The notes below the pieces were generated by a model that was not told the DNA's origin, ran no database searches, and saw only the letters and a list, made by a program, of their open reading frames with translations. From a virus (lineage: Duplodnaviria; Heunggongvirae; Uroviricota; Caudoviricetes), in the IMG/VR virus record IMGVR_UViG_2698536559_000015: a stretch of 5,694 nucleotides of DNA; one strand, written 5' to 3'. Shown here piece by piece: positions 4,696-4,938 of this stretch; positions within the stretch are counted from its first letter, which is position 1; every line of letters begins with the position of its first letter. A program made the translations under genes and the position numbers.

Positions 4696-4910
4696 TTTTT
4701 TTGTTTGCTGTTTATTAAAAACACTTCTGCATGGTGAATCCCCCTGTGCGGTGGGGCGACTGGTGTAGGTAGCATTTATTATGTTGTAGGCAAGCCGACG
4801 CGGGTTCAGTGACACCGGCTGAATTCACCGGGAGGCACCCGGCACCATGCTTTGCCACAAAAGTGTTATTTCTGTTTTTCTCAAACTATCATCGTTATTC
4901 CTTTATTTCC

Positions 4911-4938
4911 GGCTGCGCATGGCGCGGCCTTTTTTTTT
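4911..4938 (+). terminator. Strong rho-independent terminator (GC stem followed by T9)
   Basis: Stem GGCTGCGC (4911-4918) pairs with GCGCGGCC (4922-4929), loop ATG, followed by nine T residues at 4930-4938. Confidence 0.7.

Follow-up and report, generated by a model that had tools for sequence, protein, structure and literature searches.

Results

The stretch of DNA analysed here (the window, 5,694 nucleotides) is, by its gene order, the late region of a lambdoid prophage. A DUF968/HNH gene (14-1069) is followed by a RusA gene (1070-1447) with a premature TGA at 1124-1126, and by the gene of a Q antiterminator of family PF06530 (1434-1805). An AT-rich insert of three ORFs on the minus strand (1841-3389) separates Q from three tRNA genes (3686-3926), beyond which lie a disrupted TerB-family gene (a pseudogene, at about 4099-4531), a DUF3927 gene (4528-4695) and, after the interval that concerns us (4696-4938), a DUF1737 gene (5025-5195). 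Read in one frame from 4099 to 4528, the TerB-family gene contains 12 stops, with the TerB domain confined to 4238-4528; because both this gene and RusA are disrupted, we consider the prophage to be decaying. In the closest genome (99.3% identity), the upstream neighbours are TerB and DUF3927, and the downstream ones are DUF1737, holin, lysozyme and a lysis protein. The interval is therefore placed downstream of the Q/moron region and upstream of the lysis genes, as is STnc100 in lambdoid prophages.

Two other features of this region deserve description. Of the three ORFs in the insert at 1841-3389, the one with a 293-aa product has a match to the PADLOC candidate defence family PDC-S42 (E = 4e-27); the other two had no PADLOC match, and none of the three had a match in Pfam. 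The tRNA trio has the anticodons CAT (Ile according to RefSeq relatives), TTT (Lys) and TCT (Arg); it is flanked by a promoter-like site (3648-3676) and a terminator (3942-3959).

At the start of the interval, the promoter-like TTGATT with a weak -10 that the initial annotation had pointed out is present. The -35 hexamer (4692-4697, plus strand), as read from the sequence, corresponds to TTGACT at the equivalent place in PasD1 and PasD2, two related small RNAs (sRNAs) of enteropathogenic E. coli (EPEC); an 18-nt spacer leads to TAAAAA (4716-4721, plus strand), 7 nt before the predicted RNA start. This -10 is weak by consensus, it is without the conserved final T in the window copy, and the promoter was not called by a consensus promoter scan. 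Yet its sequence and position are kept in relatives, where TAAAAA or TAGAAA recurs at the -10 position even with differing flanks. Furthermore, a sigma-70-like site lies at the right distance from P0 (the closing helix of the RNA core, see below) in 48% of 50 representatives, as compared to 2.7% of control positions. By sequence and homology, TTGATT-18-TAAAAA is a weak but conserved sigma-70 promoter. The lambda-type pause 14-mer AACGATGGGTTAAT did not occur in the window with up to 3 mismatches.

The predicted RNA 5' end coincides with the 5' strand of P0, GCAUGGUG (4729-4736, plus strand), which aligns with the PasD1 and PasD2 starts; G4729 itself aligns with the start of PasD1 (NC_011601, 1060260) and with that of PasD2, both based on RNA-seq and northern blots. 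From the alignment of the window with the PasD1 and PasD2 loci, the RNA is expected to run from near 4729 into the T run, over about 209 nt. The unit, put at roughly 240 nt in the initial annotation, measures about 247 bp including the promoter; the predicted RNA, from 4729 to about 4937, is shorter.

The unit ends at an intrinsic terminator (4911-4938, plus strand) with the 8-bp GC stem and T9 run that had been described for it. The stem (4911-4918/4922-4929, GGCTGCGC-ATG-GCGCGGCC) has a 3-nt loop and seven G-C pairs out of eight, is identical to that of PasD1, and is followed by T9 at 4930-4938. The terminator folds at -15.4 kcal/mol (z = -2.9 versus shuffles). A site of this sort is not rare, as a scan of 3400-5694 returned 5 terminator-like sites where 3.0 +/- 1.9 were expected; this one is the strongest of the five, and it is conserved in relatives. 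The length of the T run varies among 97 related loci, being T8 in 85, T7 in 10 and T9 in 2, the window included.

Judged by its sequence, the interval 4696-4938 is one more copy of a prophage gene for a small RNA that has been described before, namely Rfam family STnc100, related to PasD of pathogenic E. coli. The STnc100 covariance model (RF02076) aligns to 4700-4886 over model positions 1-206 and scores 114.4 bits, the gathering cut-off being 47 (E = 2.5e-25). The helices of the model (the closing helix around P1, P3 and P4) are present in the Rfam alignment and also in the minimum-free-energy fold. The canonical STnc100 3' end (model positions of about 150-206, a GC-rich terminator hairpin) is deleted in this alignment, and the 3' part of the window unit, which the model leaves unaligned, is a PasD-type tail and terminator. 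By these alignments, the window allele is an STnc100-type core joined to a PasD-type tail. Using a 401-nt query around the interval, we obtained matches in 3029 of 5426 complete E. coli genomes, in up to 13 places per genome.

The relatives of this gene have been studied experimentally. E. coli EDL933 has eleven STnc100 copies, all of them transcribed and one confirmed by northern blot (PMC5331693), and its STnc100_4 is among the validated Hfq-associated prophage sRNA relatives. PasD1 and PasD2 of EPEC were discovered by Hfq RIL-seq and confirmed by northern blot; their ends, sizes (172-173 nt), blots and RIL-seq partners are published, with coordinates in Table S6 (PMC8550237). EcOnc27/sRNA103, located 3' of stx2B in O157 Stx2 phages, is bound by Hfq (PMC12711010, PMC7873438), and we find that its copy in phage VT2-Sakai is an STnc100 match. 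A 2026 preprint concluded that PasD and STnc100 have a common ancestor (10.64898/2026.05.13.724894). Our literature searches for the P4 sequence and for EcOnc13, the PasD homologue, returned no papers. In RefSeq, hypothetical or pseudogene CDSs are annotated antisense to PasD1 and to the tail of an STnc100 copy (L002, 2041-2439, and L001, 6255-6398, both on the minus strand); they are probably mis-calls over the sRNA gene.

The core of the RNA spans 122 nt (4729-4850) and is closed by P0 (4729-4736/4843-4850), whose 3' strand CACCAUGC (4843-4850), supported by covariation, is the boundary where different tails join. Hairpin P1 (4741-4756, CCCCU-GUGCGG-UGGGG, stem 4741-4745/4752-4756) follows from the Rfam alignment; a T at 4752 makes its innermost pair a U-U mismatch (4745/4752) in the window copy, whereas close relatives have A at this position and hence a U-A pair. 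Next come a strand CUGGUGU (4760-4766), complementary to 4812-4818, and a variable region (P2, 4767-4799) conserved neither in sequence nor in length across the family alignment. Hairpin P3 (4802-4826, GGGUUCAG / CUGAAUUC, stem 4802-4809/4819-4826) is supported by the Rfam alignment, the fold and covariation, and its loop carries ACACCGG (4812-4818), the partner of the strand at 4760-4766. Hairpin P4 (4828-4842, CCGGG-AGGCA-CCCGG, stem 4828-4832/4838-4842) is invariant in STnc100-type copies and absent from PasD. P3 and P4 are what the initial annotation had seen as GC-rich palindromes around 4800-4845. Beyond the core, a U-rich tail of 60 nt (4851-4910), homologous to that of PasD and predicted by folding to be largely unstructured, is the candidate target-pairing region.

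Folded as a single sequence, the RNA does not outperform its shuffles (z = -0.84 over its full length and -1.30 for the core), so the case for structure is built on covariation across relatives, an analysis that had been suggested as a check along with the initial annotation. IMG/VR was scanned twice, giving 66 and 113 distinct copies; P4 served as search word in the second scan, and its invariance there partly follows from the pattern used. Over 33 representatives, P0 is paired in 93.6% of cases with changes on both sides at six of its eight pairs, and P3 in 75% with such changes at seven of eight; five whole-structure measures all exceed all 500 shuffles and all slid controls. In addition, the linker after P1 pairs with the P3 loop, which makes a pseudoknot that is missing from the Rfam structure line. 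Counted in the MAFFT register, only about 50% of cells are paired, the register shifting by 0-1 nt between subtypes, and because of this shift we used a register-free test in which the P3 loops were permuted among sequences. The best duplex averages 7.27 over 45 representatives, compared with 5.55 +/- 0.18 in the controls, and 7.48 against 5.40 +/- 0.23 when they are collapsed to 29 distinct types; none of 5000 shuffles reached the observed value in either case. The strands change together from CUGGUGU / ACACCGG in the window to AUCAGCA / UGCUGAU in another E. coli type, AAUGAUC / GAUCAUU in PasD, CCAGUC / GACUGG in Klebsiella phages, and AAAUCUG / CAGAUUU and GCCAGGUC / GACCUGGC in other types. 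In one subtype, the pseudoknot strand forms a nested hairpin instead. We found no description of this pseudoknot in the literature, and the 2026 preprint on the STnc100/PasD family does not mention it (10.64898/2026.05.13.724894).

Across the family, GGUGAAU, a loop and junction GCG, and CACCGGGAGGCACCCGGCACC are invariant elements of the core. The cores are of three types and occur with at least four unrelated tails, every junction between core and tail falling at the 3' end of P0. The scaffold is found in phages of E. coli, Shigella, Salmonella, Klebsiella, Citrobacter and Cronobacter; in a scan of genome contigs with a 15-base pattern, the matches listed were only chance ones in unrelated bacteria and say nothing on the taxonomic range. 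No conserved partner gene was found beside the RNA, the neighbours being Q, methylase, holin, lysozyme and spanin. We also considered CsrA-type GGA loops and dropped them after inspection by eye, as the P1 loop has different bases following GCGG.

Some members of the family are arranged differently. Tandem arrays of 3-5 STnc100 units, each with its own tail and terminator, occur in four loci (L258, 2265-3380; L267, 342-1038; L311, 4349-5513; and L279). The units repeat about every 253 nt in L267, L279 and part of L311, and the arrays in L258 and L267 adjoin tRNA genes. A divergent branch (L251, 8040-8232; and Shigella phage SfII, L363, 3501-3706) scores 43 bits, just below the Rfam cut-off; it has GGUGAAUGCGGCU on its 5' side and, as in STnc100, CACCGGGAGGCACCCGGCACC on its 3' side, and it retains the pseudoknot. 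The SfII copy lies downstream of cI, not in the late region, and is overlapped by the annotated ORF SfII_35. The position downstream of cI is another site where phages carry lysogen-expressed extras.

Discussion

The detailed study of this interval places it among known prophage RNAs. Based on our comparisons, the best explanation, and one that we hold to be quite probable, is a self-contained sRNA gene belonging to the STnc100/PasD family, a "moron" that a decaying lambdoid prophage carries in its late region. This is the "prophage sRNA" of the two alternatives that the initial annotation had offered: the unit is a high-scoring STnc100 member, and it has its promoter, 5' end, tail and terminator in common with the experimentally mapped PasD1 and PasD2.

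The other alternative, a late leader resembling pR'-tR', did not hold up. It would make the promoter at 4692-4721 a Q-dependent pR', the RNA of about 209 nt a terminated leader like the lambda 6S RNA, and the hairpin at 4911-4938 the corresponding tR'. In its general shape, a short terminated RNA running in the direction of the lysis genes does resemble pR'-tR', and many phages have the unit between Q and the lysis cassette. In the control of lambdoid late genes, Q-modified polymerase reads through the leader terminator, and Q proteins act at their own cognate promoters. In the window, however, some 2.9 kb separate the end of Q (1805) from the promoter (4692), with seven genes or gene remnants between them, tRNA genes included. 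Furthermore, a near-identical promoter follows unrelated Q families: PF06530 in the window (also that of the Sakai Stx2 phage), PF03589 in the closest genome and at the PasD1 locus, and the lambda-type PF06323 at the PasD2 locus. Stx phages have StxS as their pR'-tR' transcript, and EcOnc27, which is of the STnc100 type, is encoded by a gene of its own 3' of stx (PMC7873438). The lambda pR'-6S-tR' region (the Q-S interval) gives no STnc100 match. One locus (L312) carries both elements: the lambda-type 14-mer AACGATGGGTTAAT, which we confirmed in the lambda pR' initial transcribed region, is found 60 nt beyond the Q stop with a terminator behind it, and the STnc100 unit, with a promoter and terminator of its own, comes 400 nt further on, directly before holin. 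The existence of tandem arrays of 3-5 units also speaks against a leader, and the window contains a better candidate at about 3466-3575. This segment has 85% identity with the intergenic sequence that directly precedes holin in Shigella phage SfIV, likewise behind a similar reverse-strand insert; at its end are a weak hairpin and T7, and it has GGTCACTTCG in common with the lambda 6S leader. By these resemblances it is a candidate remnant of the real pR' leader of this prophage, parted from Q by the insert. Taken together, we regard it as very improbable that the unit at 4692-4938 is a late leader.

An RNA of this kind could also act in cis, as a leader or attenuator in which the core senses a protein or a ligand and controls read-through of the terminator into DUF1737 and the lysis genes, or as an element that stabilises or processes the late mRNA. 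A promoter, a pseudoknotted domain with invariant loops, a terminator and co-oriented genes make up a riboswitch-type layout, and the core is always co-oriented with its host operon. However, about 60 nt of unstructured tail separate the core from the terminator, and we saw no alternative pairing between the two. Moreover, one core can be followed by unrelated tails and terminators, the downstream genes vary (a nanS-p esterase, DUF1737 or holin), units occur in tandem, and discrete RNAs accumulate from the relatives, forming chimeras on Hfq with distant mRNAs. A cis-acting leader is, for these reasons, improbable, although we give it somewhat more weight than the late leader. The least credible reading, to which we attach hardly any weight, is a small protein encoded by the 49-codon frame 4847-4996. 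Its conserved AUG, inside CACCAUGC, is preceded 11 nt upstream by a Shine-Dalgarno-like GGGAGG, and ribosome footprints were reported on some STnc100 copies of EDL933 (PMC5331693). Nevertheless, both AUG and GGGAGG are paired within P0 and P4, and the frame crosses the terminator, which leaves the terminated RNA without a stop codon. Among near-identical copies, the T7, T8 and T9 variants give three different C-termini (40, 42 and 49 aa), and the other tails give unrelated peptides of 14-36 aa. Because the C-terminus changes with the length of the T run, we do not consider 4847-4996 as coding. The initial annotation had likewise seen no convincing ORF in the interval, noting that this frame runs through the terminator and that evidence of its translation and conservation would argue otherwise: we find that only short ORFs overlap the interval, that this frame has no Pfam match, and that its length and C-terminus vary.

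The STnc100/PasD-type sRNA gene that we favour can be compared with several known systems. With STnc100/EcOnc27 it has in common its place in the late or moron region of lambdoid phages, in the same orientation as the lysis genes, and the promoter layout TTGnnT-18-TA(A/G)AAA. Canonical STnc100 has a terminator of the GCCCCUCUCCGGAGGGGC type, directly abutted by a convergent sRNA of the AsxR/AgvB type, whereas the window unit has a longer, PasD-type tail and no convergent partner at its terminator. With PasD1 and PasD2 it has in common a near-identical promoter (TTGACT in PasD), the start GCAUGGUG, an identical terminator stem and downstream flank, the homologous tail blocks GUGUUAUUUC and CUAUCAU, and DUF3927 as upstream neighbour. 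The differences from PasD (EPEC E2348/69; homologue EcOnc13) lie in the core: PasD has another core type, without P4 and below the Rfam cut-off, and the window core diverges from it over most of 4745-4842, P4 being present in the window only. The PasD seed UGUGAG (complementary to the target motif CUCACA) is replaced in the window by CCUUUAUUUCC, the window reading UUAUUCCUUUAUUUCC at the place of the seed, and the RNA is longer, at about 209 nt versus 172-173 nt. The lambda pR'-6S-tR' and StxS transcripts are similar as short RNAs that end at an intrinsic terminator in the path of late transcription; unlike them, the window unit is not adjacent to Q and its promoter is invariant across Q families, and there is no similarity to the lambda leader in sequence or by the model. 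The put antiterminator RNAs of HK022 are likewise phage-encoded, structured and co-oriented with their operon, but the STnc100 and PasD RNAs end at their own terminator; in HK022, we found no core motif within 3 mismatches genome-wide and no Rfam match in positions 26000-40751.

Based on these comparisons, the most likely course of events would be the following. The weak sigma-70 promoter would start transcription at the first base of P0, giving an RNA with a paired 5' end, and the pseudoknotted core (P0, P1, P3 and P4) would form a compact body, this body and the paired 5' end together keeping the RNA stable. By analogy with PasD1/PasD2 and EcOnc27, the RNA would be made in the lysogen and stop at its own terminator. 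Its U-tail and U-rich stretch would be bound by Hfq, a U-rich tail with a terminator and U9 being the customary module for Hfq binding and pairing, and mRNAs of the host or the prophage would be the targets with which the tail pairs in trans. Q-modified polymerase arriving from upstream in lytic growth would presumably read through the terminator. Expression, Hfq binding and base pairing of the window copy are predicted from what its relatives do. As this copy is without the PasD seed, its targets should differ from those of PasD. Most PasD chimeras on Hfq fall in the last 50 nt; as a point against this reading, PasD abundance did not change significantly between wild type and hfq mutant by RNA-seq in the activating condition (log2 fold +0.55 and -0.18) (PMC8550237). 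The window copy may also be inert or impaired, given the decaying prophage and the U-U mismatch in P1; its T9 run, rare among related loci (2 of 97), also counts against the sRNA reading.

A purely stabilising role leaves the invariant loops of the core unaccounted for. The covarying pseudoknot, these loops and a range that extends beyond E. coli suggest that the core has a specific function of its own. It is conceivable, and we propose it tentatively, as something that could well prove wrong, that the STnc100 core, with P0, P1, P3 and P4 arranged about a junction, is a cloverleaf-like domain with a pseudoknot whose role is to bind one specific partner, be it a protein, the ribosome or a small ligand. 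If true, the STnc100 family would be a fixed scaffold with exchangeable seed-and-terminator tails.

As to the locus itself, what looked like a plausible late leader is a routine match to a curated RNA family, which Rfam and Bakta would name, and with STnc100 matches in more than half of complete E. coli genomes the finding is an ordinary one. Only the pseudoknot and the breadth of the core family exceed what we found described, and both concern the family rather than the window. The window allele nevertheless illustrates how prophage sRNAs diversify by exchange of modules at the end of the closing helix. Members of the family adjoin stx2, and one study linked variants in the STnc100 copy beside stx2 to clinical outcome (PMC12711010); understanding the core could therefore matter for the biology of Shiga toxin-producing E. 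coli.

Finally, the window contains further sRNA-like units on the minus strand, downstream of DUF1737. At 5518-5601 lies a near-identical homologue of the EPEC sRNA PasA, with 2 mismatches in the alignment; the published northern probe GCCAGCACTGACTTTCGGTGGAGAG corresponds to window positions 5525-5549 (PMC8550237), and the terminator, on the same strand, reads GCCAGCAC...GUGCUGGC followed by a U run. At about 5378-5470, a second convergent unit has a 3' module (UUUUAGCCAGCGUCCUUCAGAGUGGGCGCUGGCU and a U run) identical to that of PasC and a divergent 5' part, which is the pattern described for the AgvB/AsxR/PasA/PasC class.
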